This document shows positions 2,313 through 45,774 of a DNA stretch of 64,000 bases, piece after piece (the stretch's first letter is position 1; each line of letters opens with the position of its first letter). Both the position numbers and the translations under genes were made by a program. A model generated the notes under the pieces. It had not been told where the DNA came from. It saw only the letters and a list, made by a program, of their open reading frames with translations, and made no database searches. Source of the stretch: a bacterium (lineage in GTDB: Bacteria; 4484-113; JAFGCY01). The stretch is taken from assembly GCA_020849855.1 (NCBI GenBank), contig JADZFO010000027.1:2585-66584 (forward strand), in the 5' to 3' direction.

Positions 2313-3179
2313 ATGTGGTCGATGGTGCTTAAGGAATACCGCCAGCGGGCGCGCGGTGTGGCAACGGTTGGCCTGATCATTGCCTATACCCTGATCCTGG
2401 GCGGCGTTTCGTTCTTTGTCTATCTGGCCATGTATGCCGCGCTCAACGCCCAGAGCGCGCAGGCCTCGGCCGCCGGGCGGGCGCTCTGCGTGGCCACCTT
2501 CATCGCGCAGATGATCATGGCGCTGATGCTTTCGCTTTCGCTGAACGCCAGCACCATCGCGGCGGAGAAGGACCAGGAGACTTTTGACCTGCTGAACCTG
2601 ACGCTCTTTAAGAGCTGGGAGATTGTGCTGGGCAAGTTCTTCTCCTCCACCGGCTTCCTCTTCATCCTGGTCTTCACGGCGGTGCCGATCTATACCCTGG
2701 CATTCACCTTCGGCGGCATCGACGTTGGCGCCATGTACCGCCTGGCGGCGGTAGTGACCGGCACCACGCTGCTGATCTCTTCCATCGGCCTGTTCTTCTC
2801 GCTGGTCAGCGACGACCTGCGCACGGCGCTTGGCCGCAGCTTCCTGGTGATGATCGTCATCGGAGCGGTGACCCTCTTCCTGGGCCTGGCGCTGGGCGGC
2901 AGCCTGAACTCCAGCCAGCCCAACCCGCTGACTTACTACGGCGGCCTTCTGTCCTTCTTCATCAACCCGCTCTGGGCCGCCATCGACGTTCTGGGCACGC
3001 CGCTGAGCGGACAGCTGGCCTGGGGCAGCAACGGCGGAGCGGTGCCATATGTGATCAACTCAGGCATGCTCTGGGCTTTCACGGCCGGCTTCCAGACCCT
3101 CTGCGCCGCCGGGCTGCTGGCCGTGACCTCCATGATCTATCCGCGTTACCGCGCCAGCCGTCAGGGAGGTGTGGCATGA
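2313..3179 (+). CDS. ABC-2-type transporter permease-like integral membrane protein.
   Basis: 288 aa with about six hydrophobic helices. The N-terminal region resembles ABC-2 / GldF / NosY-family permeases. It overlaps the next gene by 4 nt. Confidence 0.5.
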   Translation: MWSMVLKEYRQRARGVATVGLIIAYTLILGGVSFFVYLAMYAALNAQSAQASAAGRALCVATFIAQMIMALMLSLSLNASTIAAEKDQETFDLLNLTLFKSWEIVLGKFFSSTGFLFILVFTAVPIYTLAFTFGGIDVGAMYRLAAVVTGTTLLISSIGLFFSLVSDDLRTALGRSFLVMIVIGAVTLFLGLALGGSLNSSQPNPLTYYGGLLSFFINPLWAAIDVLGTPLSGQLAWGSNGGAVPYVINSGMLWAFTAGFQTLCAAGLLAVTSMIYPRYRASRQGGVA

Positions 3180-10821: not shown

Positions 10822-10915
10822 ATTGCGATTGTAGGGCAGGCGCGGTGTAAGATGCTGGGGCGGAGGAAGCGTGGACGCTGCTGCGTCGTATCCAGCCGGA
10901 CTGCTTGCGGGCCTG

Positions 10916-12568
10916 ATGGCGCTGGCCCTGCTCGGCTCCGCGCTGCCGGCGCGGGCTGAAGAACCGCGCGACGCCATCAAGCGCCTGCCCGACCTGACAC
11001 ACCAGAGCACCTTTGAGACCTTTGCGGCGGACGGCAGCCAGGGCCAGAGCCGCCAGGAGGACAACTACCTTGGCAGCTGGGACCTGGACTGGTATCCAGG
11101 CACGGTTGCCCTGGCCGGCGGCGTGCGGGTGACCCCGAGCATCAGCTATACCCAGTACCTGAACGACAGGCACGACCGTCTGAGCCGTGGCGGTACTGAC
11201 AGCCGGGCCGACAGCTTCGACTTCCAGCTGCGCCTGGAGCAGGACCAGCGCCTGCAAAGCAGCTTCGCCTGGCATCGCGAGGACCGCTTCAGCGGCAACC
11301 CCGGCAGCAGCCTGCGGCCGGATATGCAGGTGGCCGACTCGCGCAGCTTCAACATCGCGATCAATCAGCTGAACCTGCCCGCGCTGAGCATCTCGGGCGT
11401 GAGCAGCTCCAACTACAGCAGTGCGCTGGACGGCCAGACCGGCAGCGACTACGACAAGCTGCGCTATGGCCTCGATTTCGGCCGCGACTGGCAGACAGCG
11501 GCGATGCGCGCCCGGATGGAAGCCGAGTCATGGCGCAGCCGGATCTATCGCGACGGCTCGGTGAACAGCGGTGATCGCAGCTTTGCCGAGGCCAGTCAGC
11601 GCCTGCGCCTGGGCGCCATCGGCGATCTGAACATGAACTACTACTTCGAGGAAGTCTCGCAGATCAGCAGCGGCTCCATCGAACCATCGCGGGTGGCCTC
11701 CAGCCGCTTCAGCCTGAACCTGCAGGGTTCGCTGAACATCAGCCGCGGGAAGTACGCCTCACCTCTCAGCTATGGCACAAGCTATGCCAATTACACGAAC
11801 CAGACTGTCTCGGGCGCGGCCAACACAACCCTTGGCCGCGTTGAGCGCAGTTTCAACTTCAGGCTGAATGCTCCTGTGCCGGAGGGCAAGCTGGCGCAGT
11901 TCAGTTATGCCACGGCCTTTGGCGAGGACCAGCAGACTGACCGGCGCAACACCAGTGTCAACCAGGACATGCGCTGGGACTTCAAGCCCAACAAGCTGAC
12001 GGACGCTGGTGCCTCTTACTATCAGCAGCGCGATACCGATGAGCTCCAGCGCCTGCGCAACAAGGAATACGACCGGGTGCAGACTTACCTGACCTACCGC
12101 ATCCCGGGCAACCGGGGCAGCGTGAGCTCGGTGTATACCCTGGCCAGTGAGCGTTATCCCTCGACCCTGCGCGAGATCAACAGCACGGAGCTGCGCCTGA
12201 CCAACAGCCTCACCTTCGGCCCGCGCGCCAGCCTGCTGTTCAGCTATACGCAGAACTACAGCGACACGGAGAACAGCCTCTTCCGCGAGACCGGCAACGA
12301 CTACTCCCGGGCGGCGGTGCAGTACCGTCTGAGCACGCCGGACCGGATCAACCTGGACGCGACCTGGAGCCAGCAGACCAACCGCTACTTCCCCGGCACG
12401 ACCAAGCGCGACATCCAGGGCATTGCCCTGGGGCTGAGCTACAGTGCGGCCAACAACTGGAGCTATGCCCTGCGCCTGGACAGCAGCGATGAGCACGAGC
12501 AGAGCGACAGCAGCGGGATCTACCGTTCCGGCGAGCAGATGCAGGCGATTGTGACCTACACTTTCTGA
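10916..12568 (+). CDS. Putative outer-membrane beta-barrel protein.
   Basis: Signal peptide (MALALLGSALPARAEE; the alternative start at 10871 is also possible). Rich in alternating Ser/Thr/Tyr/Asn beta-strand-like segments. It ends in the aromatic C-terminus ...IVTYTF typical of OM barrels. Confidence 0.5.
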   Translation: MALALLGSALPARAEEPRDAIKRLPDLTHQSTFETFAADGSQGQSRQEDNYLGSWDLDWYPGTVALAGGVRVTPSISYTQYLNDRHDRLSRGGTDSRADSFDFQLRLEQDQRLQSSFAWHREDRFSGNPGSSLRPDMQVADSRSFNIAINQLNLPALSISGVSSSNYSSALDGQTGSDYDKLRYGLDFGRDWQTAAMRARMEAESWRSRIYRDGSVNSGDRSFAEASQRLRLGAIGDLNMNYYFEEVSQISSGSIEPSRVASSRFSLNLQGSLNISRGKYASPLSYGTSYANYTNQTVSGAANTTLGRVERSFNFRLNAPVPEGKLAQFSYATAFGEDQQTDRRNTSVNQDMRWDFKPNKLTDAGASYYQQRDTDELQRLRNKEYDRVQTYLTYRIPGNRGSVSSVYTLASERYPSTLREINSTELRLTNSLTFGPRASLLFSYTQNYSDTENSLFRETGNDYSRAAVQYRLSTPDRINLDATWSQQTNRYFPGTTKRDIQGIALGLSYSAANNWSYALRLDSSDEHEQSDSSGIYRSGEQMQAIVTYTF

Positions 12569-12581
12569 GACCGAGCAAGCA

Positions 12582-13130
12582 GTGAAAGACCAAGCAAAAT
12601 CCGGAATCACATCAGTGCTGGCAGCGCTGCCGCTGCTGGCGCTTTGCGCCTGCGGCTCAAGCACAGCGCCGCTGGACGACAGCGGGGTGCAGGTGCTGCT
12701 GGAGCGGCAGATCAGCATCGTGGCGGAAGGGATCGAGCGCGAGGATGCGATCCTGGCCAGCCAGCCGGTGGGCGCGCTGTTCAGCATGGGCGGGAACGTG
12801 GCGCTGCGCTATGGCACTGCGACCTTCCCGCCGGCCGGCATTTCTGAAACCCGCGGCCTGCGGCCTTTCCGGACCTTCTTTGCCGAAGCCTTCAAGCAGA
12901 ATGCCAACATCACCCAGAGCTTTGAGGTCAGCGACTTTGAGCTGAACGGCGATGTCGCCACGCTGACGGTCACCAGCACCTTCAACGCGACGCGCGTGGA
13001 CCTGGTGCCGCCGCAGAACACGACTGCCGAACTGGAGGATTTCATGGTCTTTCAGCGCGAAGGCGGGACCTGGCGGCTGGTGAACTGGGACCAGGTGCCG
13101 GAAGAGACTCCGGAGACCCCGCCGGCCTGA
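12582..13130 (+). CDS. Small lipoprotein, unknown function.
   Basis: Signal peptide with lipobox LLALCACGSS. 13 bp downstream of the OMP gene. Confidence 0.5.
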   Translation: MKDQAKSGITSVLAALPLLALCACGSSTAPLDDSGVQVLLERQISIVAEGIEREDAILASQPVGALFSMGGNVALRYGTATFPPAGISETRGLRPFRTFFAEAFKQNANITQSFEVSDFELNGDVATLTVTSTFNATRVDLVPPQNTTAELEDFMVFQREGGTWRLVNWDQVPEETPETPPA

Positions 13131-13138
13131 GCCGGAAA

Positions 13139-14188
13139 CTAGTCCGGCTGCTCTCCGAAGAGACTGGCCTCTTCTGAACGCGCCAGCTCGCGTGGCGCCG
13201 CCAGGCCAAAGTACTCATAGGCCCGCGATGTGACCATGCGTCCCCGCGGCGTCTTTTGCAGCAGGCCCAGCTTCAGCAGGTAGGGCTCGTGCACCTCGGC
13301 CAGCACATCGCGCTCCTCGTGGAATACCGCGGCCAGGGTGTCCAGGCCGACCGGTCCGCCGGCGAAGCGGTCCATGATGGCGCGCAGAATCTCGCGGTCC
13401 ATGCGGTCCAGGCCCAGGGCGCTGATCCCCAGCGAGGCCAGTCCATCGACGCAGCAGCGCAGGTCAATCTCGTCCTTGCCCTGCACCTGGGCGAAGTCGC
13501 GCATACGGCGCAGCAGGCGCAGCGCAATTCGCGGGGTGCCGCGGCTGTGTGAGGCCAGATGCTGGCGGGCTTCATCGTCAATGCTCATCCCGAGGGCGGG
13601 CGCAGCCCGCAGGATGATGCGGGAGAGCTCTTCGGGTGTATAGAACTCGAGATGGAAGAGCACGCCAAAACGGTCGCGCAGCGGGGCGCTGAGCAGGCCC
13701 GAGCGGGTAGTGGCGCCCAGCAGCGTGAAGGGCTCAAGGGGCAGGCTGATGGTCCGCGCGCCCGGCCCGGTGCCGGTGACAATATCAACGCGGAAGTCCT
13801 CCATCGCGCTGTACAGCGTCTCTTCGACGCCGCGCGGCAGGCGGTGGATCTCATCGATGAACAGGGCCTGGCCTGGTGCGAGGCCGCTGAGGATCGCCAC
13901 CAGATCGCCGGGCCGCTCCAGCAGGGGGCCGGCGCTCACCGCCAGGCTGGTGTCCATCTCACCGGCGATCAGATGCGCCAGCGTGGTCTTGCCGAGGCCG
14001 GGGGGTCCGCTGAAGAGGATATGCTCCAGTGCTTCACCGCGCAGACGCGCGGCGGAGATCATGATGCGCAGGTTGCTGACCAGGCCTTCCTGGCCGATGA
14101 AGTCATCCAGGCGGCGGGGGCGCAGCGAGACGAACTCGGCATCCTCACGGCGAGCCTGGTAGCGCAGAACATTGTCGGCGTTATCCAA
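13139..14188 (-). CDS. ruvB: Holliday junction branch-migration helicase RuvB.
   Basis: Walker A GPPGLGKTTLA, Walker B ALFIDEIHRL, sensor motifs, and the RuvB-type C-terminal winged helix. TTG start immediately after the def stop. Confidence 0.9.
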   Translation of the reverse strand: MDNADNVLRYQARREDAEFVSLRPRRLDDFIGQEGLVSNLRIMISAARLRGEALEHILFSGPPGLGKTTLAHLIAGEMDTSLAVSAGPLLERPGDLVAILSGLAPGQALFIDEIHRLPRGVEETLYSAMEDFRVDIVTGTGPGARTISLPLEPFTLLGATTRSGLLSAPLRDRFGVLFHLEFYTPEELSRIILRAAPALGMSIDDEARQHLASHSRGTPRIALRLLRRMRDFAQVQGKDEIDLRCCVDGLASLGISALGLDRMDREILRAIMDRFAGGPVGLDTLAAVFHEERDVLAEVHEPYLLKLGLLQKTPRGRMVTSRAYEYFGLAAPRELARSEEASLFGEQPD

Positions 14189-14189
14189 C

Positions 14190-14825
14190 TCAGGCTCCGC
14201 TCTGGGGCTCCGGCCCCGGGACAGGTCCGGCGGGCTGCGTCGGTTCGCCCGGGTGCAGCTGGGCCTGCATCGCCCCCAGACGCTCGCGGCGCTTGCGCCT
14301 GCGCTCGGCGGCCGGGCTGAGCTCGCCCTCCTCGCCCACCTCTTCGGGCTCGTCCTCTTCCGGAATCATGCCGTTAACCGCGCGCTCAAAGAGCAGCACG
14401 CCATTGAGGTGGTCGAATTCATGCTGCAACACCCGGGCCATGAAGCCGTCGAAACGCTGCTCATGCTCCTGGAAGTCCAGGTCCTGGTACTTGAGGATGA
14501 TCGCCAGATGCCGTTCCACATCAGCCACCCAGCCGGGAATGCTGAGGCAGCCTTCGCGGGCCACATGCGTCTCGGATGACACTGCGGTGATCTGCGGGTT
14601 GATGTAGCCGCGCACTTCCTCAGTTTCGGGGTTCATTGCGATGAAGAAACGGATGCCCTTGCCCACCTGGGGCGCGGCCAGACCAACGCCAATGTCCTGC
14701 ATGGTCTCGCGCATCTGCTCGAACAGGTGGCGGATTTCTCCGAGCTCTCTCTTTTCAACCCTCCGGCAGGGCCGGGTGAGGATCCGGTTGGGTGCGATAA
14801 CGATTGGCAGGGCCATACTCTGCAA
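14190..14825 (-). CDS. def: Peptide deformylase with an extended acidic/Pro-rich C-terminal tail.
   Basis: Contains the GVGLAAPQVG, EGCLS and HEFDHLNG motifs. It runs about 40-60 aa longer than typical Def. Confidence 0.85.
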   Translation of the reverse strand: MQSMALPIVIAPNRILTRPCRRVEKRELGEIRHLFEQMRETMQDIGVGLAAPQVGKGIRFFIAMNPETEEVRGYINPQITAVSSETHVAREGCLSIPGWVADVERHLAIILKYQDLDFQEHEQRFDGFMARVLQHEFDHLNGVLLFERAVNGMIPEEDEPEEVGEEGELSPAAERRRKRRERLGAMQAQLHPGEPTQPAGPVPGPEPQSGA

Positions 14826-14900
14826 TTATAACCTAGCCATATGTAAAGTATCGCGGCCTCAGGTTAGTATGGAGTGTTGAGGAATACAGGGCCGACCCGT
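14826..14900. promoter_or_regulatory. AT-rich divergent promoter region between def (-) and the first PaaK-like ligase gene (+).
   Basis: A locally low-GC stretch (tgcaattataacctagccatatgtaaagta) lies between divergently oriented gene starts. No defined -35/-10 boxes were resolved. Confidence 0.3.
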
Positions 14901-16247
14901 ATGCCGCTGCGGGGCTGGCGCTGGACTGCGCTTGGCCTGCTGGGTAAGCACGGTGGGAATGCCGCCCGCCGCCGCCTGGCTGAGCTGGAGCGCAGCCAGT
15001 GGCTCGATCCCGGTGCAATGGAGGAGTACTGCCGGACGCAGGTCGCCCGGCAGCTCAGCTTTGCCGCGCGCTTAGTACCCTTCTATCAGCGGCGCTACGG
15101 GGAAACGGAGAGCCTGAGTGATTACAGGCCGCTGACCAGACTGGATCTGCAATCCGGGTTTCAGGAACTGCAGTCTCCCCTGGCGCAGCAGCGCGGGGCC
15201 TGGAAGCTGAGCAGTTCAGGCTCCAGCGGCCAGGTTGTGACCGTGCTGCGCGACCGCCAGACCCAGGCCTGGGCCACGGCCTGCACCTGGCGCGGGGACT
15301 GTTGGGGGGCGCCGATACTGCCCGAGTCACGGCAGCTCAGCCTGTTGAGCAATGTGGGCAACATCGTGGGCAGCCGCCGGGCTCTCAGCCCCCTGGGCAC
15401 CTGGCTGCACAACCGCTATGTTCTGGATGCCATGCGCCTGACACCGCAGCGGGTGAAGGAGCTGCTGGAACGCATCGCGGAACTGCGGCCGCAGGTGCTT
15501 TCAGGCTATCCCAGCGTGCTGCTGCCAGTTGCGAGGATCGCCAGCAGCCATGGCATGCTGGCGCCTGTTCTGCAGAAAGTGATACCTACGGCCGAAAGCT
15601 GCAGTCCTGAGGAGGCGGCAGAGCTGGAGCAGTTCTTCCGCGTCCCAGTGCGGCAGCGCTATGGTTCGCACGAATTCAGCGCGATGGCCCACCAGTGCGA
15701 AGCCGGCCGCTGGCACTGGCACAGCGAGGTAATCTGGCCTGAGGTTGTGCGACAGGACGGCAGTATTGGCCAAAGTGGTCGCGGAAGCCTGCTTTGCACA
15801 TCCCTGGTGAACCAGTCCATGCCGTTGATCCGCTATGAGATCGGTGATGTGGTGGATCTGGACTCTGCCGCCTGTTCCTGCGGGAGAGGGTTGGGGAGTT
15901 TCAGCAGCATCGAAGGCCGGACCCAGGAGCATGTCTACTGCCCGGACGGAAGCTGGATCAGCAGCCATGCATTCCTGGCACCGCTGCGCAGCCTGCCGCT
16001 GCTGCAGTTCCAGCTGGTGCAGGAAATGCCGGATGAGCTGCTGCTGCGTGTAGTGGCACAGGGACCGCTGGAACCCCGGCAGGCGGAGTGGATTCAGGAG
16101 ACCTACCGCCAGATCCATGGCGGGGCCTTCAGGCTGCGCATTGAACAGACTGATGAGCTGGAGCGCAGTCCAAGCGGCAAGCTGCTGCGCTGCATAAACC
16201 GGCTGAAGCGACCTGAGCTGCCAAGCAGCTCGAATTCCACTACGTGA
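14901..16247 (+). CDS. PaaK/CapK/coenzyme-F390-synthetase-family adenylate-forming enzyme, paralog 1.
   Basis: SSGSSGQVVT P-loop (compare PaaK TSGTTGKP). Also RYGSHEF (YGxTE-like), PLIRYEIGD, CSCGRGL and a C-terminal SGK. The ATG at 14901 gives MPLRGWRW, matching the MDWRW N-termini of the other paralogs. A GTG at 14874 is an alternative start. Confidence 0.75.
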   Translation: MPLRGWRWTALGLLGKHGGNAARRRLAELERSQWLDPGAMEEYCRTQVARQLSFAARLVPFYQRRYGETESLSDYRPLTRLDLQSGFQELQSPLAQQRGAWKLSSSGSSGQVVTVLRDRQTQAWATACTWRGDCWGAPILPESRQLSLLSNVGNIVGSRRALSPLGTWLHNRYVLDAMRLTPQRVKELLERIAELRPQVLSGYPSVLLPVARIASSHGMLAPVLQKVIPTAESCSPEEAAELEQFFRVPVRQRYGSHEFSAMAHQCEAGRWHWHSEVIWPEVVRQDGSIGQSGRGSLLCTSLVNQSMPLIRYEIGDVVDLDSAACSCGRGLGSFSSIEGRTQEHVYCPDGSWISSHAFLAPLRSLPLLQFQLVQEMPDELLLRVVAQGPLEPRQAEWIQETYRQIHGGAFRLRIEQTDELERSPSGKLLRCINRLKRPELPSSSNSTT

Positions 16248-16276
16248 GCAAAGTGCACTACGGGGACTAGGCGATA

Positions 16277-17620
16277 ATGACTGCGCTAGTGGGGTTTAGA
16301 ACGGCACTGTGGAAGCTGAAGGCCGGAGTGGATGGCAACCCGGTTTTCCAGCGCTATGAACACCTGATGCAGTCCCAGTGGTTCCTGCCTGCGGAGTTGC
16401 AGGCCCGGACCGCTGAGGCGCTTCAGCGTGTGCTTCTGCACAGTGCGCGCTCTGTGCCCTTTTACCGCAGGCGCAACGCAAAGGCAGATTCGCTGGAGAG
16501 CTTCGGCACCATCAGCCGTGATGAGTTGATCAACGGCTTTGGCCAGCTTCAGTCGACAGACCCCGGACCGCTGCCGCACTGGCAGACCAGCTCCAGCGGT
16601 TCCTCCGGCCAGCCAGTTACGGTCGTGCTGGACAAGGAGTGCAACAGCTGGCGCACCGCGAGCGCCTGGCGCGGCGACACCTTCGGTACCGGCCTCGGCC
16701 CGGATGCCAGGCAGCTGGCCATCTGGGGCAACCCGATGGAGCTGAAGCTGACGCGGCGCATGTTCCAGCGCGCGCTGAACTTCTACCACAACCGCTTCAT
16801 CGTCGACGGCTTCACCATAACCCCCGAGAGCGTCCGCGAGATCCACCGCGTGATGTGGAAGCTGCGGCCCAAGATTCTGTATGGCTATCCCGCTTCCCTG
16901 CACGGCTTTGTGCTCAGCGCCCTGGAGCAGGGCCTGGAGCCGATACCGGTCTGGCGCCTGATGACCACCGGCGAGCAGCTAAACGAAACCCAGAAGGAAG
17001 CCATCGCGCAGTACTTCGGGGTGACGGTCTGCGAGCGTTATGGCAGCCGGGAGTTCGGCTCCATGGCGCACCAGTGCGAGCACGGCGTCTGGCATATCCA
17101 CCAGGAGCACCTGCACTTTGAAGTCCGCCTGCCTGACGGCAGGATCAGCGACAGCGGAACCGGCGACCTGCTGGTGACTTCACTGCACAACTTCACCATG
17201 CCCCTGATCCGCTATGAGATCGGCGACATGGCCAACCTGACGCCGGCGGACTGCCAGTGCGGCCGCGGACTGCGCACCTTCCACAGCCTGCTGGGCCGGC
17301 CCAGCGAGTTTATCTACACGCCAAGCGGGGCCTGGATCAACGCCAATCACTATCACGTCCTGCTGCGGGATGAGCCGGTCCGGCATTTCCGCTTCATCCA
17401 GGACACACCCGGTGAGCTGCGCATGCTGATCGTCCCTCTGGCGGAGATGACGCCGGAGCGGCTGGAGCTGCTGCGCAAGCAGGGCGAAGCCATCGCCAGG
17501 CATGAGCTGAAGCTGCATCTGGAAGTTGTTGACCATATCGACCCGCTGCCCAATGGCAAAAGCCCGGGGGTGCTGAACCTGCTGCCCCGGCCGGAGCTGC
17601 CGGGCCGGCTGGATGTCTGA
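16277..17620 (+). CDS. PaaK/CapK-family adenylate-forming enzyme, paralog 2.
   Basis: SSGSSGQPVT, RYGSREFGSMAHQCE, PLIRYEIGD, CQCGRGL and NGKSP motifs. ATG start. Ends 7 bp before the convergent paralog 3. Confidence 0.75.
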   Translation: MTALVGFRTALWKLKAGVDGNPVFQRYEHLMQSQWFLPAELQARTAEALQRVLLHSARSVPFYRRRNAKADSLESFGTISRDELINGFGQLQSTDPGPLPHWQTSSSGSSGQPVTVVLDKECNSWRTASAWRGDTFGTGLGPDARQLAIWGNPMELKLTRRMFQRALNFYHNRFIVDGFTITPESVREIHRVMWKLRPKILYGYPASLHGFVLSALEQGLEPIPVWRLMTTGEQLNETQKEAIAQYFGVTVCERYGSREFGSMAHQCEHGVWHIHQEHLHFEVRLPDGRISDSGTGDLLVTSLHNFTMPLIRYEIGDMANLTPADCQCGRGLRTFHSLLGRPSEFIYTPSGAWINANHYHVLLRDEPVRHFRFIQDTPGELRMLIVPLAEMTPERLELLRKQGEAIARHELKLHLEVVDHIDPLPNGKSPGVLNLLPRPELPGRLDV

Positions 17621-17627
17621 GTGGCGG

Positions 17628-18938
17628 CTAGGAGCGCAGGGTCAGATTGACCACATGCGGATTCTTGCCGCTGGGCAGGGGCTCAATTCGCTCAACCAGT
17701 TTCAGGTCCACCTTCATGAGCCCGAGCAGCACACCATCAAAGTCCTTGTGCAGCCCGCTGAGCAGCGCCTCATCCTCTGGCGCGAGGCCCTGCAGCAGCA
17801 CCTCAAGGTGGTCCGCGGAGTCCTGGACAATCCTGAAACGCTTCAGGCTCAGGCGACGCAGGAAATTGGTGAAGGCCAGTGAACTGATCAGCCGCCCGTC
17901 GGGGCTGGTGATGTGCTCAGCGACCCGGCCCTCGATGCCGCGGAAGGCCGGCAGACCCCGCCCGCAGTTGCACGGAACCGCTGTTGCATCGACCACATCG
18001 CCTATGTCGTAGCGCAGCAGTGGCATCACACGGTTGCTCAGCGTAGTGCAAACGGCGCGGCCGCAGCCATGGCGGGCGAAGCTGCCATCCGTGAGCTGGA
18101 CCTCGAGCAGGAAGTTCTCACTGTGCCAGTGCCAGTTACCCTGCTCGCACTGATGCGCCATCGAGCCGATCTCCCGGCTGCCATAGCGGCCCAGTACCGG
18201 ACAGCCGAAGTACTCTTCAAAATCGAGGCGCTGCAGTTCGCTGCAGTACTCCGCGGTCGGGATGACTTTACTCACGGCTGGCGCGCGCAGTCCGAGCCGG
18301 CGCGAAATTGACACGAAAGCGCTTAGCGCGGTCACATAACCGTAGATGATCCCCGGGCGCAGCCGCCGGATGCGCTGATGCAGTGCACGGACCTTTGCAT
18401 CGTCAAGGACAAAGCAGTCCAGCAGGAAGCGGTTGCGATAGAGGCTGGATGCGGCTTCAAGCAGCGGGTGCCGGCTTTTAAGGTCCCTGGAGTTGCCCCA
18501 CAGCGCGACCTGCCGCGCCGTCGGCCCTAGCTGGCTGCCCCAGCAGTCTCCCCGCAGGGCGGCTGCATGGCGCCAGGCTGCGCTTGAGCCGTCGTAAACA
18601 ATGCTCACCGGCTCACCGGTTGAACCACTGCTGGTTACGCGGTGCATGGTGCCGCCGGCTTCCAGGTTCATGAGCGAATGCCCAAGGCGCTTGAGGTCAA
18701 CTCGACCTATCAGCGGCAGCTGATCGATTGTAATTACCTCAGAGTCCAGTGGCAGGCTTTGGTAGAAGGGAATGGACTGCCGGGCGTAATCCAGGATCTG
18801 CGCCAGGCGGGAGGCCTGGTAGTTCTCTAGCTGGGCAGGCGTCCACCACTGGGTTTCCAGAAGCAGGTCATATGCAGCAGCCGCCTGGCGTCCTTCATCG
18901 CCGCCAAGCACCTGCCATGCCAGCCAGCGCCAGTCCAC
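17628..18938 (-). CDS. PaaK/CapK-family adenylate-forming enzyme, paralog 3.
   Basis: GTG start giving MDWRWLAWQ. Contains SSGSTGEPVS, RYGSREIGSMAHQCE, PLLRYDIGD, CNCGRGL and SGKNP. Confidence 0.75.
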   Translation of the reverse strand: MDWRWLAWQVLGGDEGRQAAAAYDLLLETQWWTPAQLENYQASRLAQILDYARQSIPFYQSLPLDSEVITIDQLPLIGRVDLKRLGHSLMNLEAGGTMHRVTSSGSTGEPVSIVYDGSSAAWRHAAALRGDCWGSQLGPTARQVALWGNSRDLKSRHPLLEAASSLYRNRFLLDCFVLDDAKVRALHQRIRRLRPGIIYGYVTALSAFVSISRRLGLRAPAVSKVIPTAEYCSELQRLDFEEYFGCPVLGRYGSREIGSMAHQCEQGNWHWHSENFLLEVQLTDGSFARHGCGRAVCTTLSNRVMPLLRYDIGDVVDATAVPCNCGRGLPAFRGIEGRVAEHITSPDGRLISSLAFTNFLRRLSLKRFRIVQDSADHLEVLLQGLAPEDEALLSGLHKDFDGVLLGLMKVDLKLVERIEPLPSGKNPHVVNLTLRS

Positions 18939-18978
18939 ACTTGAATGATAACGCTAGTGTGTCAGTGGATCTTCCTGC

Positions 18979-19005
18979 CACTGCGAGGCATTTTTATTCG
19001 CAGTG
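18979..19005. other. Perfect 8-bp inverted repeat (CACTGCGA ... TCGCAGTG) with a T-rich loop, in the 90-bp spacer between paralogs 4 and 3.
   Basis: Read directly from the sequence (ccactgcgaggcatttttattcgcagtg). No U-tract follows on either strand, so it is not a canonical terminator. Confidence 0.3.
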
Positions 19006-19028
19006 TCAGTCTGAGGCAGAGTGCCGGA

Positions 19029-20309
19029 TTACATAGGGGTTCTTGCCGCTGGCAGGCTGGGTATTTCTGCAACCTGGCGCACGGTGAAGCGGAAGGGCTC
19101 GCCAAGCAGAGTTTCGAAGTGAGCGCGCAGTGAGTCGAGATCGCCCGTTGGCAGGTCCTGATCTGCCTGCAGGAGGAAGCTGATCCTGTGCTGCGCCTCG
19201 ATGACGAAGCGGTATTTGCGTAGCGGCAGATGCTGAAAGTAGCTGTTGAAAGTGCAGAGGTTCACCCAGCGCTGGTCAGGGCAGCGGATATGGTCCGTGA
19301 TTCTTCCTTCAAGGCTGCTGAAAGTCTGCAGGCCACGGCCGCAGGGGCAGGCCAGCGGGCTGAGGTCGGCGAAGTCCCCCAGCTCATAGCGGATCAGCGG
19401 CATGGCGCGGTTGCACAGACTGGTCAAAAGCAGCCTGCCGCGCCCTGCGGTGCTGATGCTGCCATCGTCCAAAAGGACCTCGGCCGCCAGTAGCTCGCTG
19501 TTGAGATGCCAGTTGCGGTATTCGCAGCGGCTGGCGATGGGGCCAAACTCATTGCTGGCGTAGCGGTCCACGGCGAAGCCGCCAAAGAAGGCGCTCATCT
19601 CCAGCGCGTCCTCAGCGCTGCAGTGCTCGCCGCAGGGGATCACCTTTTCAAACTGCCAGGGCTCAATCCCGGCCTCTCGAGCAAAGTGCATGAAGGCCAG
19701 GACAGCGGAGCTGGGGCCATACAGCAGGCGTGCGCCGCAGTCGGCAAAGTCCTGGTTCACTTCACGGGCCCGCGCCGGTGTCATCTCAAAGCAGTTGAAG
19801 ACGAAGCGGTTGAAGAAACGGTCGTAGAGCCTGGCGCGCAGGCTGCGCAGCTTGCCCGAGTCACGGCTGGAAGCCCACAGCCCGGCCTGCGGATCTGTCG
19901 GACGCAGCCTGCTGCCCCAGAGGTCACCGCGCAGCAGGGCCGCCCTGCGGGTGGCCTGGGCCTCGATGTCCACGCTGACAGTCACCGGCTCGCCCGTCGA
20001 ACCGCCGGTTTGCCAGCGGCTGATCCGGCCGGGCGGCGCATGCTCGGGCTGCAGCGCCGCAGCCTGATCGCGCAGGGTCTGGCGCGTGATGACGGGGAAG
20101 CTCTCCAGGCGCGCCGGCAGCCCTGAACCGCGGTAGTAAGGCACGGTCTCCAGGGCGTAGCGCAGGATCAGCTCCAGGCGCTCAGCGCGCAGCGCGGCGA
20201 GCTCAGCCGGGCTGGCCCACTGGCTTTGCAGCAGCGCGTCATAGGCCGCTGCCGTGGGCCGCCAGATTTCGCCGTCATAGAGCTGCCAGCCCAGCCAGCG
20301 CCAGTCCAT
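19029..20309 (-). CDS. PaaK/CapK-family adenylate-forming enzyme, paralog 4.
   Basis: An in-frame ATG gives MDWRWLGWQ; a TTG 18 nt upstream at 20327 is an alternative start. Contains TGGSTGEPVT, RYASNEFGPIASRCE, PLIRYELGD and CPCGRGL. Confidence 0.75.
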   Translation of the reverse strand: MDWRWLGWQLYDGEIWRPTAAAYDALLQSQWASPAELAALRAERLELILRYALETVPYYRGSGLPARLESFPVITRQTLRDQAAALQPEHAPPGRISRWQTGGSTGEPVTVSVDIEAQATRRAALLRGDLWGSRLRPTDPQAGLWASSRDSGKLRSLRARLYDRFFNRFVFNCFEMTPARAREVNQDFADCGARLLYGPSSAVLAFMHFAREAGIEPWQFEKVIPCGEHCSAEDALEMSAFFGGFAVDRYASNEFGPIASRCEYRNWHLNSELLAAEVLLDDGSISTAGRGRLLLTSLCNRAMPLIRYELGDFADLSPLACPCGRGLQTFSSLEGRITDHIRCPDQRWVNLCTFNSYFQHLPLRKYRFVIEAQHRISFLLQADQDLPTGDLDSLRAHFETLLGEPFRFTVRQVAEIPSLPAARTPM

Positions 20310-20354
20310 GACTGCATCATAGCGCAACCATAAGGCGCTGTTGCCTGCCTCCGA

Positions 20355-21683
20355 TCAGTCGCTCTGGGCCGCGTCGCGCTCCTTGCGCAGCAGGTTCACG
20401 ATATGCGGGCTTTTGCCGCTGCGCAGGGGCGGGATGAGTTCAAGCTGCTCAATATCCACCCGGATCTGGCCCTCGAAAAGACGCTCGAAGCCGACCAGCA
20501 CCTGGGCCCGCAGCTCGCTGCTGATCTCGCCGCGGTACTCCACCTGCAGGGTCACATGCTCCAGGGCATCCTGCACGATGCGGAACTTGGCAAAGGGCGT
20601 CAGGCGCAGGAAGCGCGTGAAGGCCATGGAGCTGATCCAGCGGCCGTCGGGGCAGTAGACATGCTCCGCCACGCGGCCCTCGATGCTGCGGAAGGTTGGC
20701 AGGCCGCGGCCACAGGGGCAGGGCGGCCCGTCGAGGTCCAGCAGGTCGCGGATGTCGTAGCGGATGGTGGGCATCAGGCGGTTGCTGAGGCTGGTGCAAA
20801 GCAGGCTGCCCCGGCCGTCCTCGCTGATGCTGCCGTCCGGGTGCTGTACCTCCAGATACAGGTGCTCGCAGCTGATATGCCAGGAGCCCGCCTCGCACTG
20901 GTGGCCCATCGGGCCCATCTCGCGCGAGGCATAGCGCTCCAGAATCACCGCACCTTCGAAGAACTCCCGGATCTCGGCCCTGGCCTCGGGCGTGCACTGC
21001 TCTGCTGTGGGCATGACCTTCTCTATGAAGGGCGGGCGCAGTCCAAGCTCCCTGGCGAAACGAATGTAGCCCAGCAGCGATGAAACATAGCCGTACAAAA
21101 ATCGCGGCCGCCGCTGGTGCAGTTCCCGGTGAATGCGCTGCACCTGCTGGCAGTCCATTACCCAGCAGTGGATGATCCAGCGGTTGTAGAGCCAGTCATA
21201 GGCCCGGCTGCGCAGGCTCTGGCTCTGCCGCGAGTCGCGCGGGTTGCCCCAGAGGCTGACGGTTGGCGCGGTGGGCTCGAAGCTGGCGCCCCAGCTGTCA
21301 CCGCGGTAGAGCGCCGCGCGGCGCCAGGCGAAGGTCAGTTCGTCGAAGTGAATCGTCGCCGGCTCACCGGTGCTGCCGCTGCTGGTGCCCTCAAAGCGCT
21401 TGCCGGGCGGGGCCTCATCCGAGAGCAGTCGGCTCTGCTCACGCATGATGAGCTGGCGGGACAGGACCGGGTAATCCGTGAGCCTTGTGCCAAGGCCCAG
21501 TTCGCGGTAGTAGGGGACAGTGCGGCTGGCATGTTCAAGCACTTCTTCGAGCCGCTCGCGCTGGTAGCGCTGCAGCTCCCGGGTGGGCCACCACTGGCTT
21601 TGCAGGCACCAGTCATAACGCTGAGCGACAGCGCGGCCGAGATCCCCGCCATAAACCTGCCAAGCCAGCCAGCGCCAGTCCAA
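20355..21683 (-). CDS. PaaK/CapK-family adenylate-forming enzyme, paralog 5.
   Basis: The TTG at 21683 gives MDWRWLAWQ. The longer ORF-track start would overlap paralog 6. Contains SSGSTGEPAT, RYASREMGPMGHQCE, CPCGRGL and SGKSP. Confidence 0.7.
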   Translation of the reverse strand: MDWRWLAWQVYGGDLGRAVAQRYDWCLQSQWWPTRELQRYQRERLEEVLEHASRTVPYYRELGLGTRLTDYPVLSRQLIMREQSRLLSDEAPPGKRFEGTSSGSTGEPATIHFDELTFAWRRAALYRGDSWGASFEPTAPTVSLWGNPRDSRQSQSLRSRAYDWLYNRWIIHCWVMDCQQVQRIHRELHQRRPRFLYGYVSSLLGYIRFARELGLRPPFIEKVMPTAEQCTPEARAEIREFFEGAVILERYASREMGPMGHQCEAGSWHISCEHLYLEVQHPDGSISEDGRGSLLCTSLSNRLMPTIRYDIRDLLDLDGPPCPCGRGLPTFRSIEGRVAEHVYCPDGRWISSMAFTRFLRLTPFAKFRIVQDALEHVTLQVEYRGEISSELRAQVLVGFERLFEGQIRVDIEQLELIPPLRSGKSPHIVNLLRKERDAAQSD

Positions 21684-21720
21684 GCCTGCATCATAGCGCG
21701 GCCCGGCTGTCTGCCCGGCA

Positions 21721-23055
21721 CTAAGGCTCCTGCGGAACTGGCAGACCGGCGGCCCGCCGGTGCAGCTTGTTGATGACAATCGGGTCCTTGCCGTTTGAGA
21801 GCGGCAGTATCTTCTCGACCAGCCGGATACGAAGCTGCATCTGCTCGCCAAGGTAGGCATGGAAGAGGCGTTCCACCTCTGCGCGCATCTCTGCCGGTAC
21901 CGGCTCGCTGCCCTGGACCTGCACCTCAATCGTGCGCTCGTCTTCCTGCACCACCCGGTATTTGCTGAAGGCCATCCTCCGCAGCGGCATGATGAAGCCC
22001 CAGGGACTGAGCCAGCCGCCGTCCGGCCGAAACAGCTGCTCCGAGAGCCTGCCGTCCAGCAGGCTCATGGTGGGCAGGCCGCGGCCGCAGGTGCAGGGGA
22101 CAGGGGTCAGGTCCACCATGTCTCCGATCTCGTAGCGGATCAGCGGCATGGCCCGGTTGTCCAGGCTTGTGGCCAGCAGGCTGCCATAGCCGCTGGGGCT
22201 GATGCTGCCGTCAGCCTGGCGGACCTCCAGCAGCAGGTTCTCGCTGTGCAGGTGCCAGGTGCCTTGTTCGCAGCGGTGGGCGATAGGGCCCAGTTCCGCC
22301 GCGCCATAGCGGTCCATGACACTGCAGCCAAAGAAGTCCCGCAGTTCCTGCTGGGCAGGCTCCAGGCAGGTCTCGGAGGTAAGCATCACCTTTTCCATGG
22401 GCGGCGGCTGCAGCCCGGCCGCGCTGGCAAAGCGGGCGTAGGCTTCCACCACCGAGGCATAGCCGACCAGCATCCGCGGCCGCAGGCGGTGCAGGGCGCG
22501 GTTGAGCTTCAGCGCCTGCTCGGCATTCATGTCCACGCGGTTGAAGACATAGCGGTTGTAGACATAGTCATACAGACGGGCGCGCCAATTCTGCTGCGAC
22601 CCTGCGTCCCGGCTGCTGACCCACAGCACGACCTGACGGTCGGTGGCGCGCAGGCTGCAGCCCCAGGCATCGCCGCGCAGCATGGCGGCCCGGCGCCAGG
22701 CCTGGGCCAAGGAATCCACCTGTGCACTGACCGGCTCGCCGGAGGATCCGGCGCTCTGCCAGTTGTAGATCTTGCCTGGCGGGGCTGGCGTGGCCAGGTG
22801 CCGCGGGTAGTCCGGCCGGAAGCTCTGACGGTCGACGACCGGAAAGGCGCTCAGGCGCGCCGGCAAGCCCAGGTCGCGATAGAAGGGCACGCTGTCCAGG
22901 GCACAGGCCAGCAGGCGTTCCAGCTTCTGCTGCTGCAGCTCAGCCAGCTTCTCCGGTGCGGCCCACTGGCTTTCCAGCAGAAAGTCATAGCAGGCAGCGG
23001 TCTGGCGCCATGTCTCGCCGCCATGCACCTGCCATAAGGTCCATCTCCAGTCCAA
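21721..23055 (-). CDS. PaaK/CapK-family adenylate-forming enzyme, paralog 6.
   Basis: The TTG at 23055 gives MDWRWTLWQ. The ORF-track extension to 23199 would overlap the polA-like gene. Contains SAGSSGEPVS, RYGAAELGPIAHRCE, PLIRYEIGD, CTCGRGL and NGKDP. Confidence 0.7.
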   Translation of the reverse strand: MDWRWTLWQVHGGETWRQTAACYDFLLESQWAAPEKLAELQQQKLERLLACALDSVPFYRDLGLPARLSAFPVVDRQSFRPDYPRHLATPAPPGKIYNWQSAGSSGEPVSAQVDSLAQAWRRAAMLRGDAWGCSLRATDRQVVLWVSSRDAGSQQNWRARLYDYVYNRYVFNRVDMNAEQALKLNRALHRLRPRMLVGYASVVEAYARFASAAGLQPPPMEKVMLTSETCLEPAQQELRDFFGCSVMDRYGAAELGPIAHRCEQGTWHLHSENLLLEVRQADGSISPSGYGSLLATSLDNRAMPLIRYEIGDMVDLTPVPCTCGRGLPTMSLLDGRLSEQLFRPDGGWLSPWGFIMPLRRMAFSKYRVVQEDERTIEVQVQGSEPVPAEMRAEVERLFHAYLGEQMQLRIRLVEKILPLSNGKDPIVINKLHRRAAGLPVPQEP

Positions 23056-23100
23056 GGGCAGAGATGATAGGGCCTGCGCCCCATGCGCTATAAACAGGGC

Positions 23101-23988
23101 ATGGCGGACCGTATCCTCCTCATCGACTCCACCGGCCTGATCTTCCGGGCCTACTGGACCATCAAGCCGCTCTCCGCGCCCGACGGCACCCCGGTGCACG
23201 CGGTCTTTGGCATGCTGCGGATCATGATGAAAGTCTTCAAGGACCGCCCGGCAACCGCCAGCGCGATGATCTTCGACGCGGGCATGGACACCTTCCGCCG
23301 CGAGATGTACGCAGACTACAAGGCCAACCGCCCGCCGCCGCCCGACGACCTGCGGCCGCAGTTCGGCCTGTCAATTGAAGCCTGCCGCTGCACCGGCGCG
23401 CCGGTCTTTGCCGAAAAGGGCTTCGAGGCCGATGACATCATCGCCACCCTGCGCGACCGCGCGGTGGAGCGCGGCATGGCGGTGACCATCATCACCGGCG
23501 ACCGCGACATCCTGCAGCTGCTGGCGCCGAATGTGGAAGTGCTGATCATGAAGGGCGCCGGCGAGTTCGACCCTTACACGCCGGAGCGCTTCCTTGAGGA
23601 GTACGGCTTCCCGGTCGACCGCTTTGTTGACTACAAGGCTCTGATGGGCGACACCAGTGACAACATTCCCGGCCTGCCCGGCGTGGGTCCTAAGACGGCG
23701 CAGAAGCTGATCCAGACCTATGGCAAGCTTGAGCACATCTATGCCAACCTGGAGTTCGTCAAGCCGGATAAGCTGCGCGGCCTGCTCAAGGAGAACCAGG
23801 AAAAGGTCTTCATGTACCGCGAGCTCTGTACCCTGCATCACACTGTGCCTGTTGAGTACGACTTCAGCTCACGGGTGATGCCAAACTTCGGCAGCGAAGA
23901 ACTGGCGGCCAAGCTGAGCGGCATGGGCTTTACCCGCATCGGCGAGGATGCGAAGAAGCTGGGGGATCTGCAGGCGGCTTCTTCGTAG
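23101..23988 (+). CDS. Standalone 5'-3' exonuclease (Pol I N-terminal domain / FEN-like).
   Basis: Contains the LLIDSTGLIFRAY and GFEADD motifs, an H3TH motif (GDTSDNIPGLPGVGPKTAQKLI), and no polymerase domain. An alternative ATG lies at 23083. Confidence 0.8.
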   Translation: MADRILLIDSTGLIFRAYWTIKPLSAPDGTPVHAVFGMLRIMMKVFKDRPATASAMIFDAGMDTFRREMYADYKANRPPPPDDLRPQFGLSIEACRCTGAPVFAEKGFEADDIIATLRDRAVERGMAVTIITGDRDILQLLAPNVEVLIMKGAGEFDPYTPERFLEEYGFPVDRFVDYKALMGDTSDNIPGLPGVGPKTAQKLIQTYGKLEHIYANLEFVKPDKLRGLLKENQEKVFMYRELCTLHHTVPVEYDFSSRVMPNFGSEELAAKLSGMGFTRIGEDAKKLGDLQAASS

Positions 23989-23989
23989 G

Positions 23990-24039
23990 GGCGGACCTTG
24001 TGTCCGCCTGGCCTCGTAGGGTGCACGCGTGCGTGCACC
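23990..24039. terminator. Two adjacent GC-rich perfect hairpins between convergent genes, a putative bidirectional terminator.
   Basis: GGCGGAC-cttgt-GTCCGCC (23990-24008) and GGTGCACG-cgtg-CGTGCACC (24020-24039). There are no U-tracts. Confidence 0.3.
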
Positions 24040-24073
24040 TTCCGGATGGTGCAGGCAGGCCTGCGCTTTGCCG

Positions 24074-24982
24074 TTAGCCCCCGCTGATGGCCAGGCGCTT
24101 CATACCGCCGCGCTGCAGCAGCTGGGCGCCCAGGCCCAGCAGGACCACCCAGACCAGAGCGCGCAGCACCATCAGCCAGGCCTCAGCGCCGCTGATATGG
24201 CCCAGGTAGATCTGCATGGGCTGGTAGAACATGTGCTGTGTCGGCAGCAGCTTGAAAGCCCGCTCCACACCCTCTGGAAACTGGCTCAGCGGGATGACCA
24301 TGCCGCCGGCGATGTTCATCACCATGCGGATACCCATGCGGATGCCGTTGTTGTATTCCAGGTAGAAACTGAGCAGGCCGATGCTGTAGTCAAGGATGAA
24401 GTTGATGCTGTAGCCCAGCACGATGGCCAGGAAGAAGGGCAGCACCGCGGCGGCGCTGGGCGGCTTGATATCCCCGAAAAGGTTGAAGACCAGCAGCAGC
24501 GGCAGGGTGGCGAAACAGAGGCGGAAGAAGGTGCGGCCGATGCCCTGGCCCAGGTAGTTCGCCATCAGGTTCAGGGGCTTAAGCAGGTCCATCGCCACCT
24601 GGCCCTCGCGGACCGCCGCGCCTAGGTTGCGCCCTGTGGGGGTCATATAGAAGGTGTTAAGCGACCAGGAGATGGTGACGTAGGTGATTGCGCCCTGCAT
24701 GTCCATCCCGCCGATGCTGGCGCCGGAGGCGTAGACGGCGCCATAGACATAGCGGTACATCACGATGATGATCGGGTAGGACAGGAAGACGAAGACCACG
24801 CCGGCGGGGTAGGCCAGATAGGAGTTGAAGCCGACCTGCGCCAGAGCGAAGATGCTGGCCAGCAGGCTGCGCAGGCCGTGGCGCGCGGGGCGCTGCGGCG
24901 GCTGGATCGTCAGCCCGGTGGCGGACAGGCTGGGACCCTGGCCTCCGGAGGCAGACACGCTGGCTCGGGCAGCAACACTCAC
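24074..24982 (-). CDS. ABC-2-family transporter permease-like membrane protein.
   Basis: About six hydrophobic helices. The overall layout resembles the ABC-2 permease family. No ATPase partner gene is adjacent. Confidence 0.45.
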   Translation of the reverse strand: MSVAARASVSASGGQGPSLSATGLTIQPPQRPARHGLRSLLASIFALAQVGFNSYLAYPAGVVFVFLSYPIIIVMYRYVYGAVYASGASIGGMDMQGAITYVTISWSLNTFYMTPTGRNLGAAVREGQVAMDLLKPLNLMANYLGQGIGRTFFRLCFATLPLLLVFNLFGDIKPPSAAAVLPFFLAIVLGYSINFILDYSIGLLSFYLEYNNGIRMGIRMVMNIAGGMVIPLSQFPEGVERAFKLLPTQHMFYQPMQIYLGHISGAEAWLMVLRALVWVVLLGLGAQLLQRGGMKRLAISGG

Positions 24983-28798: not shown

Positions 28799-28884
28799 GC
28801 GGAAGTGGTGGAATGGCAGACACGCCAGGTTGAGGGCCTGGTGGCCGCAAGGCCGTGCGGGTTCAAGTCCCGCCTTCCGCACCA
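28799..28884 (+). tRNA. tRNA-Leu (anticodon GAG) with a long variable arm and encoded CCA.
   Basis: Hand-folded. Acceptor stem GCGGAAG / CTTCCGC. Anticodon stem CCAGG / CCTGG with loop TTGAGGG. Variable-arm stem GGCC / GGCC. T-arm GCGGG-TTCAAGT-CCCGC. Confidence 0.8.
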
Positions 28885-30762: not shown

Positions 30763-30835
30763 TGGGCCGCGAAGGATTCGAACCCTCGACCAAGTGATTA
30801 AGAGTCACCTGCTCTACCAGCTGAGCTAGCGGCCC
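30763..30835 (-). tRNA. tRNA-Lys (anticodon CTT).
   Basis: The reverse complement folds as GGGCCGC acceptor, AGCTCAGCTGGTAGAGC D-arm, anticodon stem GGTGA / TCACT with loop CTCTTAA, and T-arm GAGGG-TTCGAAT-CCTTC. No encoded CCA. Confidence 0.8.
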
Positions 30836-39194: not shown

Positions 39195-39400
39195 ATTGAG
39201 CTCTCAGCCCCTGCGCGCAGGTGTGGACCGTAATTTCTGCCCAAGTGATGCTCTTCACGCCTGCGCGCAGGGGCCACCTCTCCGCACGGCCGGGCGCCGT
39301 CGCGTCCCTGCCACTGTGCTTCAAGACGAAGGTTATGGATAGCTGTTTCCAGGCTGCAGAGAGAAGCCTGAAAATCCGCCCGGTTGAAACCGGATCAAAT

Positions 39401-39472
39401 GGGCCCGGCAGGATTCGAACCCGCGACCAAGAGATTATGAGTCTCCTGCTCTAACCGCTGAGCTACAGGCCC
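39401..39472 (-). tRNA. tRNA-Met/Ile2 (anticodon CAT), not an obvious initiator.
   Basis: The reverse complement folds as GGGCCTG acceptor, AGCTCAGCGGTTAGAGC D-arm, anticodon stem GGAGA / TCTCT with loop CTCATAA, and T-arm CGCGGG-TTCGAAT-CCTGCC. It has a G1-C72 pair and lacks the three G-C pairs expected in the anticodon stem of initiator tRNA. Confidence 0.75.
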
Positions 39473-45237: not shown

Positions 45238-45774
45238 CTAGTCGCCAAGAAAGATCAGATCCGAGCGGCCGGGCGGCTCGATTCCCTGAGAGCGCAGCAT
45301 GTGCGCCACCCCGCCAAGATGCCAGACGCAGTGCGTAGCCGCATGGGTCAGGGCCAGACCCCGGCTCTTGTGCAGGATACCGGCCGAGCGGGTCTTGAAC
45401 TCCACCATCCGGCTGAAGTCTTCTGGCTGCTGGGAGCTGCAGACTTCGCGGTGCCTGTCGATACAGGCCTTGGCGTGCGCAATGAGGACATGCCAGTCGT
45501 CCGTCGCAACAGTGCTGTCGTCCAGCGGGTCGCTGCCCGCGATTTGGTCGCTGTAGCGGTGCAGCGGTGTAAACGCGTGGCGCATGAAGTGGCCCATGGT
45601 GGGAAAGGCAGGGTTGCCGCTTGGGAGACCGAGCCAGCTGTTGTCACGCTCCCTGGCCCACAGCTCCCAGCGCCCAAGCTGGTAATCCAGCCAGGCGTTC
45701 AGCGCGGAAAGGTGGTCACCGCTGCTAAAGAAGCGGCTCGGGCTGCCTGCGCCAGCATTCGGACTGTCACTCAT
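45238..45774 (-). CDS. DinB/YfiT-like (DinB_2 superfamily) protein.
   Basis: His-rich motifs (HFMRHAFTPLHRY ... HCVWHLGGVAHMLR) are typical of the DinB metal-binding four-helix bundle. The start is placed at MSDSP, since the longer ORF overlaps the upstream gene. Confidence 0.45.
   Translation of the reverse strand: MSDSPNAGAGSPSRFFSSGDHLSALNAWLDYQLGRWELWARERDNSWLGLPSGNPAFPTMGHFMRHAFTPLHRYSDQIAGSDPLDDSTVATDDWHVLIAHAKACIDRHREVCSSQQPEDFSRMVEFKTRSAGILHKSRGLALTHAATHCVWHLGGVAHMLRSQGIEPPGRSDLIFLGD

Follow-up and report, generated by a model that had tools for sequence, protein, structure and literature searches.

Six consecutive genes encoding paralogous adenylate-forming enzymes occupy positions 14874-23055 of a 64,000-nucleotide stretch of bacterial DNA (GenBank assembly GCA_020849855.1, contig JADZFO010000027.1), referred to here in its whole length as the window. 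The paralogues are named p1 to p6; p1 and p2 lie on the plus strand and p3 to p6 on the minus strand. A related metagenome-assembled genome (MAG), GCA_964512635.1 (L001), carries the same six-gene array. The comparisons described below show that no new kind of system is involved: the enzyme family is common, though uncharacterised in biochemical terms, and the array is an unusually large expansion within it. Its role is discussed in the light of an earlier, sequence-only reading of the same DNA, made without database searches.

Layout and insertion site

The plus-strand pair consists of p1 (14874-16247), a CapK/NatL2-type adenylate-forming ligase gene, and p2 (16277-17620). The likely true start of p1 is an ATG at about 14901 (MPLRGWRW...), as in its orthologue, while p2 begins either at 16277 or at a GTG at 16289, the start of the database form (443 amino acids (aa); P0248). 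On the minus strand, p6 (21721-23055; MCC7478126.1) opens the operon and is followed by p5 (20355-21683; MCC7478125.1), both with TTG starts, then by p4 (19029-20309 as assembled; MCC7478124.1) and finally by p3 (17628-18938; MCC7478123.1). The listing of open reading frames (ORFs) gives p1, p2 and p3 at these coordinates and the other three as 19029-20327 (p4), 20355-21929 (p5) and 21721-23199 (p6); true starts were set by homology to orthologues and by exact matches to NCBI proteins. The proteins are about 426-457 aa long and align across their full length with 55 invariant columns. Their pairwise identity of 33-48% bears out the only moderate identity described in the sequence-only reading. 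The ORF listing likewise confirms six consecutive genes, two on the plus and four on the minus strand, and holds no further plausible gene between p1 and p6.

The two operons converge at 17620/17628 with 7 bp between their stop codons; in L001 the corresponding stops overlap by 4 bp (13989-13992 of that contig). No terminator-like hairpin was found at the junction (17620-17628), so that transcripts of each side should read antisense into the other. A scan of 14000-24200 for promoters and terminators returned signals no commoner than in shuffled sequence.

The flanks are, as had been proposed, def and an exonuclease gene, both identified by Pfam matches. The peptide deformylase gene def (14190-14825, minus strand; Pep_deformylase, 2.7e-44) marks the left edge of an insertion and the 5'-3' exonuclease gene (23083-23988, plus strand; 5_3_exonuc_N and 5_3_exonuc) its right edge; neither belongs to the system. 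RuvB relatives at 66-85% identity put the window genome in an uncultured lineage. On a 2.38-Mb contig from this wider group (L172; RuvB 70%), def and the exonuclease gene are immediate neighbours and no ligase gene comes between them, which shows that the array was inserted into conserved housekeeping surroundings. It follows that the flanks, and the broad synteny with L001, carry no functional information. The conserved synteny had suggested a functional link to def, ruvB or the exonuclease, which was rejected on the evidence of L172. The insertion is proposed to have happened in the ancestor of the window genome and GCA_964512635.1.

Enzyme family, motifs and fold

All six proteins are PaaK-branch adenylate-forming enzymes of the ANL superfamily, and all six fall outside every curated equivalog. 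The P-loops read SSGSSGQV, SSGSSGQP, SSGSTGEP, TGGSTGEP, SSGSTGEP and SAGSSGEP; the second motif is RY(G/A)(S/A)xE and the third P(L/T)(I/L)RY(E/D)(I/L)(G/R)D. The hallmark motifs claimed from the sequence are thus present, although more variable than stated, and the C-terminal lysine motif SGK is out of frame in p4. This catalytic lysine (A10) is at least 90% conserved over 53 family members, and the tail beyond it measures 13-20 residues in the six, a length similar to that in NatL2 and PaaK.

In NCBIfam, every paralogue gave sub-threshold matches to the DVU_1553-family, BagE/FevW, FlxY, PaaK and F390-synthetase-related models, while the F390 synthetase and DdaG models matched only some of the six; none reached a curated equivalog threshold. 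The BagE/FevW model scored 62-83 bits against a cut-off of 800. Two models suggested earlier for checking, TIGR02155 and TIGR03335, were both matched far below cut-off. Identification as PaaK proper was rejected: TIGR02155 scored 21-46 bits against 646.3 and NF041878 43-65 bits against 700, and paa genes are absent from the window. F390 synthetase was rejected as well, since TIGR03335 matches only p2 and p3, at about 20-22 bits against 458.7. Pfam, searched at E ≤ 0.01 in a copy that seems to be without PF27533 (CapK_C), matched none of the six; a precomputed label for that family, marked weak, stands on four of the six L001 orthologues and on most family matches. At the same threshold there was no match to PF03321, and a GH3-like acyl acid amido synthetase of the OlsH type was rejected. 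A defence-system reading was dropped after PADLOC models matched nothing.

Among solved structures, a profile search of the PDB with the six returned AjiA1 (6WUQ, 8.8e-34), NatL2 (6SIW, 1.3e-33), ClxA (1.7e-25), BT_0428 (9.3e-20) and PaaK1/2 (2.5e-18). An AlphaFold2 model of p2 (predicted local distance difference test score 92.3, predicted template modelling score 0.90) shows the two-domain PaaK fold, and Foldseek placed PaaK1/2, AjiA1, NatL2, ClxA and BT_0428 at about 1e-23, with PaaK1/2 narrowly top. Together with the sub-threshold NCBIfam matches, these searches uphold the earlier assignment to a PaaK/CapK/F390-related branch at superfamily level.

A predicted zinc site of the NatL2 type

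NatL2 depends on adenosine triphosphate (ATP): it adenylates 3-hydroxyanthranilate and esterifies it with a second molecule, using no coenzyme A (CoA) (PMC7204872). Chemistry of this type needs neither a carrier protein nor a CoA-using partner. In NatL2 a C-terminal lock excludes CoA by blocking the conformation that would form a thioester. The structural zinc of the enzyme is coordinated by Cys248, His254, Cys308 and Cys310, at a site that the authors of the study call unique relative to PaaK, and the enzyme forms a dimer in which each catalytic lysine acts in trans, in the partner's active site (PMC7204872). The four ligands align to C267, H273, C326 and C328 of p2 and are invariant in all six paralogues and in 53 diverse family members. 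All six are thus predicted to carry a structural zinc site of the NatL2 type, and this conservation places them in a zinc-containing, NatL2-like/CapK-like PaaK subgroup (database label PF27533, CapK_C).

The solved enzymes NatL2, AjiA1, BomJ and ClxA (PDB 6SIW, 6WUQ, 9S3L) are the best sequence matches of known structure. They have in common with the array the PaaK fold, the P-loop, the C-terminal lysine and the four zinc ligands (Cys/His/Cys-x-Cys), and they show that the subgroup can make esters and amides directly from an acyl-adenylate, without CoA. However, identity is only about 23-25%, and their pathways hold one ligase copy where the array holds six. PaaK (PDB 2Y27, 2Y4N, 2Y4O) shares the fold and the adenylation motifs, whereas the array has the ligands of a zinc site that PaaK is said to lack (PMC7204872) and no paa operon. 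OlsH, a GH3-like, ANL-related enzyme by which planctomycetes form N-acyl ornithine directly (PMC12493201), resembles the array by functional analogy only, as an ATP-dependent, adenylate-forming, CoA-independent amide ligase from an environmental lineage; OlsH is placed in another family (GH3, PF03321), and its partners OlsI and OlsG are absent from the array.

The reading frame of p4

The sequence-only reading had described all six genes as full length, free of frameshifts and furnished with the SGK lysine. This does not hold for p4, which is frameshifted in the window and leaves the lysine in frame in five of the six. As assembled, p4 ends in IPSLPAARTPM and a stop, and three-frame translation finds SGKNPYVIRHSASD with its stop in another frame. 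A 1-nt deletion in a CCC run (19048-19052, minus strand; CC instead of CCC, one C gone at about 19051-19052), some ten codons before the gene end, puts the catalytic A10 motif SGKNP out of frame. With the C restored, the stop shifts to 19006-19008 and the gene spans 19006-20309.

Two other sequences bear on this lesion. A Logan contig (L176; SRR30605902), assembled independently and 96.5% identical to the window over 2,739 bp with one gap, has an intact gene, which reads IPSLPSGKNPYVIRHSASD and its stop in a single frame; the site of the lesion corresponds to about 610-625 of the contig. The L001 orthologue (r_c) also carries its motif in frame, as LPSGKSPYVV. The missing base reflects either a mutation peculiar to the strain or an assembly error in the homopolymer, and the normal state of p4, judged from these relatives, is intact. 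The NCBI annotation MCC7478124.1 is the truncated 426-aa form, entered as a normal protein.

Orthologues, selection and duplication history

Among 185,579 species-representative genomes, close relatives of the array were found only in GCA_964512635.1; all other matches were at most 35% identical over the best aligned segment. The search for six-gene synteny, which the earlier reading had proposed, thus recovered the array in one other genome. In L001 the six genes lie between def-ruvB and the exonuclease gene, arranged and oriented as in the window. Orthology is cleanly one to one (63-83%, as against 33-48% between paralogues). Nonsynonymous-to-synonymous rate ratios (dN/dS) range from 0.11 to 0.21 and are to be read as rough, because dS is 1.2-1.8, near saturation. 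The most conserved paralogue is p2 (orthologue r_e, 83% identity, dN/dS 0.11), followed by p5 (r_b, 81%, 0.12) and p6 (r_a, 75%, 0.15); p1 (r_f, 64%, 0.20), p3 (r_d, 64%, 0.21) and p4 (r_c, 63%, 0.21) have diverged further. The one-to-one orthologues in a second genome and the low ratios substantiate the proposal of old duplications under selection.

By neighbour-joining, the six and a few metagenomic relatives form one clade within the family. With 500 bootstrap replicates, p4 grouped with p6 in 100% and p3 with p5 in 84%, the four genes p3 to p6 came together in 90%, and the pairings p5+p6 and p3+p4 received 0%. Because p4 pairs with p6 and p3 with p5, the transcription order p6-p5-p4-p3 reads A-B-A'-B', and therefore points to a tandem duplication of a two-gene unit. 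The tree and gene order indicate that the array grew from single genes, p1 and p2, and a duplicated two-gene unit, p6-p5 giving p4-p3. Copies from the nearest sister lineage, which are linked to a Wzx flippase, group with p2 in the tree.

Copy number and genomic context across the family

The family is huge. An exhaustive profile search returned 8,046 representative clusters at E ≤ 1e-30, with only about a dozen inside the clade of the array, and a scan of JGI metagenomes added a single in-clade fragment (L092). Copies were counted within 10 kb at 70 family loci of at least 15 kb, drawn from genome and metagenome scans. One copy was present at 49 loci, two at 16, three at 3, four at 1 and six at 1, the last being the sister MAG. 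More than one copy thus occurs at 20 of the other 69 loci, and tandem CapK-like arrays of two to four genes are common. The four tandem copies of a Rhodospirillaceae locus (L031) form their own clade, an independent expansion, and three copies occur in Acidobacteria. Tandem arrays are therefore ordinary in this family, while the clade of the array is rare and six is the largest array in the sample.

Glycan-related genes recur around these ligases. At the nearest sister-lineage loci, two or three copies are interleaved with a Wzx-type flippase gene (PF01943; the weak HfsF-like match was all that NCBIfam gave for the uncharacterised genes there), and a hexapeptide acyltransferase and a MocR-type regulator are also encoded. 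The four Rhodospirillaceae copies adjoin two family 4 glycosyltransferase (GT4) genes and a PEP-CTERM protein gene, while three tandem copies at another locus (L063) adjoin a DUF3473 polysaccharide deacetylase gene, a family 2 glycosyltransferase (GT2) gene and sigma-54 activator genes. Ligases are also fused to GT2, at a locus with Wzm, methyltransferase, RmlD-like and GT2 genes, and to aspartate 1-decarboxylase (PanD), the latter fusion being directly preceded by a GT4 and a polysaccharide deacetylase gene. A deacetylase, GT4, GT2 or Wzx homologue lies within 10 kb at 48 of 69 independent family loci, and at least two of these kinds at 36, a count obtained with ad hoc hidden Markov models and without a background control. 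CapK-like genes of polysaccharide and PEP-CTERM loci (PF27533) are the protein family inside which the six form their clade, and tandem paralogues are typical of this family; the array differs in standing isolated between housekeeping genes. At one sister-lineage locus (L085), kynureninase and tryptophan 2,3-dioxygenase genes (13790-15676) lie about 3 kb from the CapK/Wzx cluster. Their proximity may be coincidence, and is of interest because NatL2 and AjiA1 use 3-hydroxyanthranilate.

Many family members (P0254-P0270), 830-1490 aa long, consist of two complete CapK-like ligases joined head to tail, each half keeping its P-loop, CxCG zinc motif and C-terminal lysine intact. These fusions suggest, from their sequences, that a dimer is the working unit. 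One of them (P0261) bears an extra N-terminal extension of about 590 residues.

As the sequence-only reading had stated, the array has no partner genes: Pfam and NCBIfam scans of the surrounding 12 kb or so, and of the rest of the window, found housekeeping proteins or proteins of no family. Its further conclusion that such a battery fits no pathway that can be named was overstated, because small tandem arrays are frequent and usually lie in polysaccharide loci, although it remains true that no glycan genes stand at the array itself. A tblastn search with all ORFs of the sister-lineage loci found no match in the window outside the array.

Proposed function

The array is tentatively read, at somewhat less than an even chance, as a lineage-specific battery of CapK-type ligases decorating a surface glycan. 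Each paralogue would bind ATP and a small carboxylic acid and form an acyl-adenylate. The acyl group would then pass to an amine or hydroxyl, yielding an amide or ester directly, as in NatL2, or possibly by way of a thioester. The acceptor would most likely be a cell-surface glycan or its lipid-linked repeat unit, by analogy with the family's genomic context. The adjacency of deacetylase and ligase genes, together with the PanD fusion, suggests a scheme of deacetylation followed by reacylation, in which an amino sugar of the lipid-linked repeat unit would be freed by the deacetylase and then charged with another acid, for example beta-alanine. The six diverged paralogues may represent six acid/acceptor specificities, or successive additions.

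Several observations weigh against glycan decoration. In both the window and L001, the 10 kb on either side of the array are devoid of glycosyltransferase, deacetylase, flippase and sugar-nucleotide genes. The sole glycosyltransferase of the window, and the sole glycan-synthesis gene detected in its 64 kb, is a 781-aa protein with two GT2 domains (45767-48112, minus strand), 23 kb from the array. The family-wide count of glycan-linked loci is uncontrolled, as noted above. Literature searches turned up no member of the CapK-like clade with a biochemical characterisation, and the substrates of the closest solved enzymes are not glycans but free aromatic acids of natural-product pathways. Finally, p4 as assembled is without its catalytic lysine.

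The strongest competing explanation, still an unlikely one, is carrier-free assembly of small molecules, with the six ligases working on free substrates, either one after another or side by side. The products would be a natural product of oligo-amide or ester type, a siderophore-like compound, or N-acyl amino acids or aminolipids, for which NatL2/BomJ, BagE/FevW, DdaG and OlsH are precedents. The best solved or curated matches are of this kind (AjiA1 and NatL2, with BagE/FevW, FlxY and DdaG among the NCBIfam matches), and the conserved zinc site is that of NatL2. Further, such chemistry dispenses with the carrier protein and CoA-using partner that the array lacks, OlsH makes N-acyl ornithine directly, and tryptophan-degradation genes lie near one sister-lineage cluster. 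However, no precursor-supply, NatAM-like tailoring or dedicated export genes stand beside the array; Pfam and NCBIfam scans of the window found neither a NatAM/BomN-type amidohydrolase nor genes for aromatic amino-acid or 3-hydroxyanthranilate precursors. The matches to models of this type also score far under their equivalog cut-offs, GH3 is unmatched in Pfam, and the genomic context of the family is mostly glycan-related.

Classical CoA ligation is doubtful to a greater degree. It would make the six aryl- or alkyl-acid:CoA ligases that feed acids to catabolism, as PaaK does with phenylacetate. The name given by NCBI, phenylacetate--CoA ligase family protein, agrees with this, as do the PaaK fold and motifs and the narrow lead of PaaK1/2 in Foldseek. 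But the sequences are much nearer to NatL2/AjiA1 than to PaaK (1e-33 against 1e-18), the TIGR02155 scores are a small fraction of the cut-off, and a zinc site described as unique relative to PaaK (PMC7204872) is conserved. Moreover, Pfam and NCBIfam found no paa, beta-oxidation, ring-attack or thioesterase genes in the 64 kb, and the family's loci are glycan loci.

A further and improbable variant concerns how the enzymes might cooperate. As the duplicated unit is a gene pair, didomain fusions are common and the lysine of NatL2 acts in trans, p6/p5, p4/p3 and perhaps p1/p2 could work as heterodimers that form an assembly line free of carrier proteins. A single acceptor, whether a free scaffold or the repeat unit of a glycan, would then receive several different acyl or aminoacyl units from the three pairs in set order. 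That the genes are redundant or decaying duplicates with no distinct roles, as the loss of the catalytic lysine from p4 in the window assembly might suggest, is very improbable in view of the one-to-one orthologues in conserved order, the low dN/dS ratios, the invariant motifs and zinc ligands, and the intact p4 of both the 96.5%-identical strain and L001.

If the preferred reading, glycan decoration, is true, then CapK-like ligases, a very large family recurring in bacterial surface-polysaccharide loci, would provide a general means of linking aminoacyl groups, or acyl groups other than acetyl, to glycans at the expense of ATP, and a six-member battery would encode unusually elaborate decoration. 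The locus adds no new mechanism by itself. Nevertheless, its six diverged, co-evolving paralogues with clear orthologues are useful material for mapping specificity, and it hints at a possible paired (heterodimeric) mode of action.

Neighbouring genes

Insertions seem to recur around def-ruvB in this lineage. On a further contig (L173; RuvB 74%) a TilS-like gene lies upstream of def, and a HicB/HicA toxin-antitoxin pair (3130-3578) is inserted just 3' of ruvB, a position where the window has none. Two adjacent plus-strand genes of the window are conserved beside ruvB in both L001 and L173. The first (10871-12568) encodes a 565-aa secreted protein ending in YTF, like an outer-membrane beta-barrel, and the second, directly after it (12582-13130), a 182-aa lipoprotein; neither matches a family.

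Elsewhere in the window, Rfam identified three tRNAs only (28799-28881, plus strand; 30763-30835 and 39400-39472, minus strand). Tandem genes for methyl-accepting chemotaxis proteins (41384-43297 and 43390-45072, minus strand) have Tll0287-like and 4HB_MCP sensors, and two adjacent paralogues of M14 zinc carboxypeptidases (55851-57671 and 57668-59518, plus strand) have reading frames that overlap by 4 bp.

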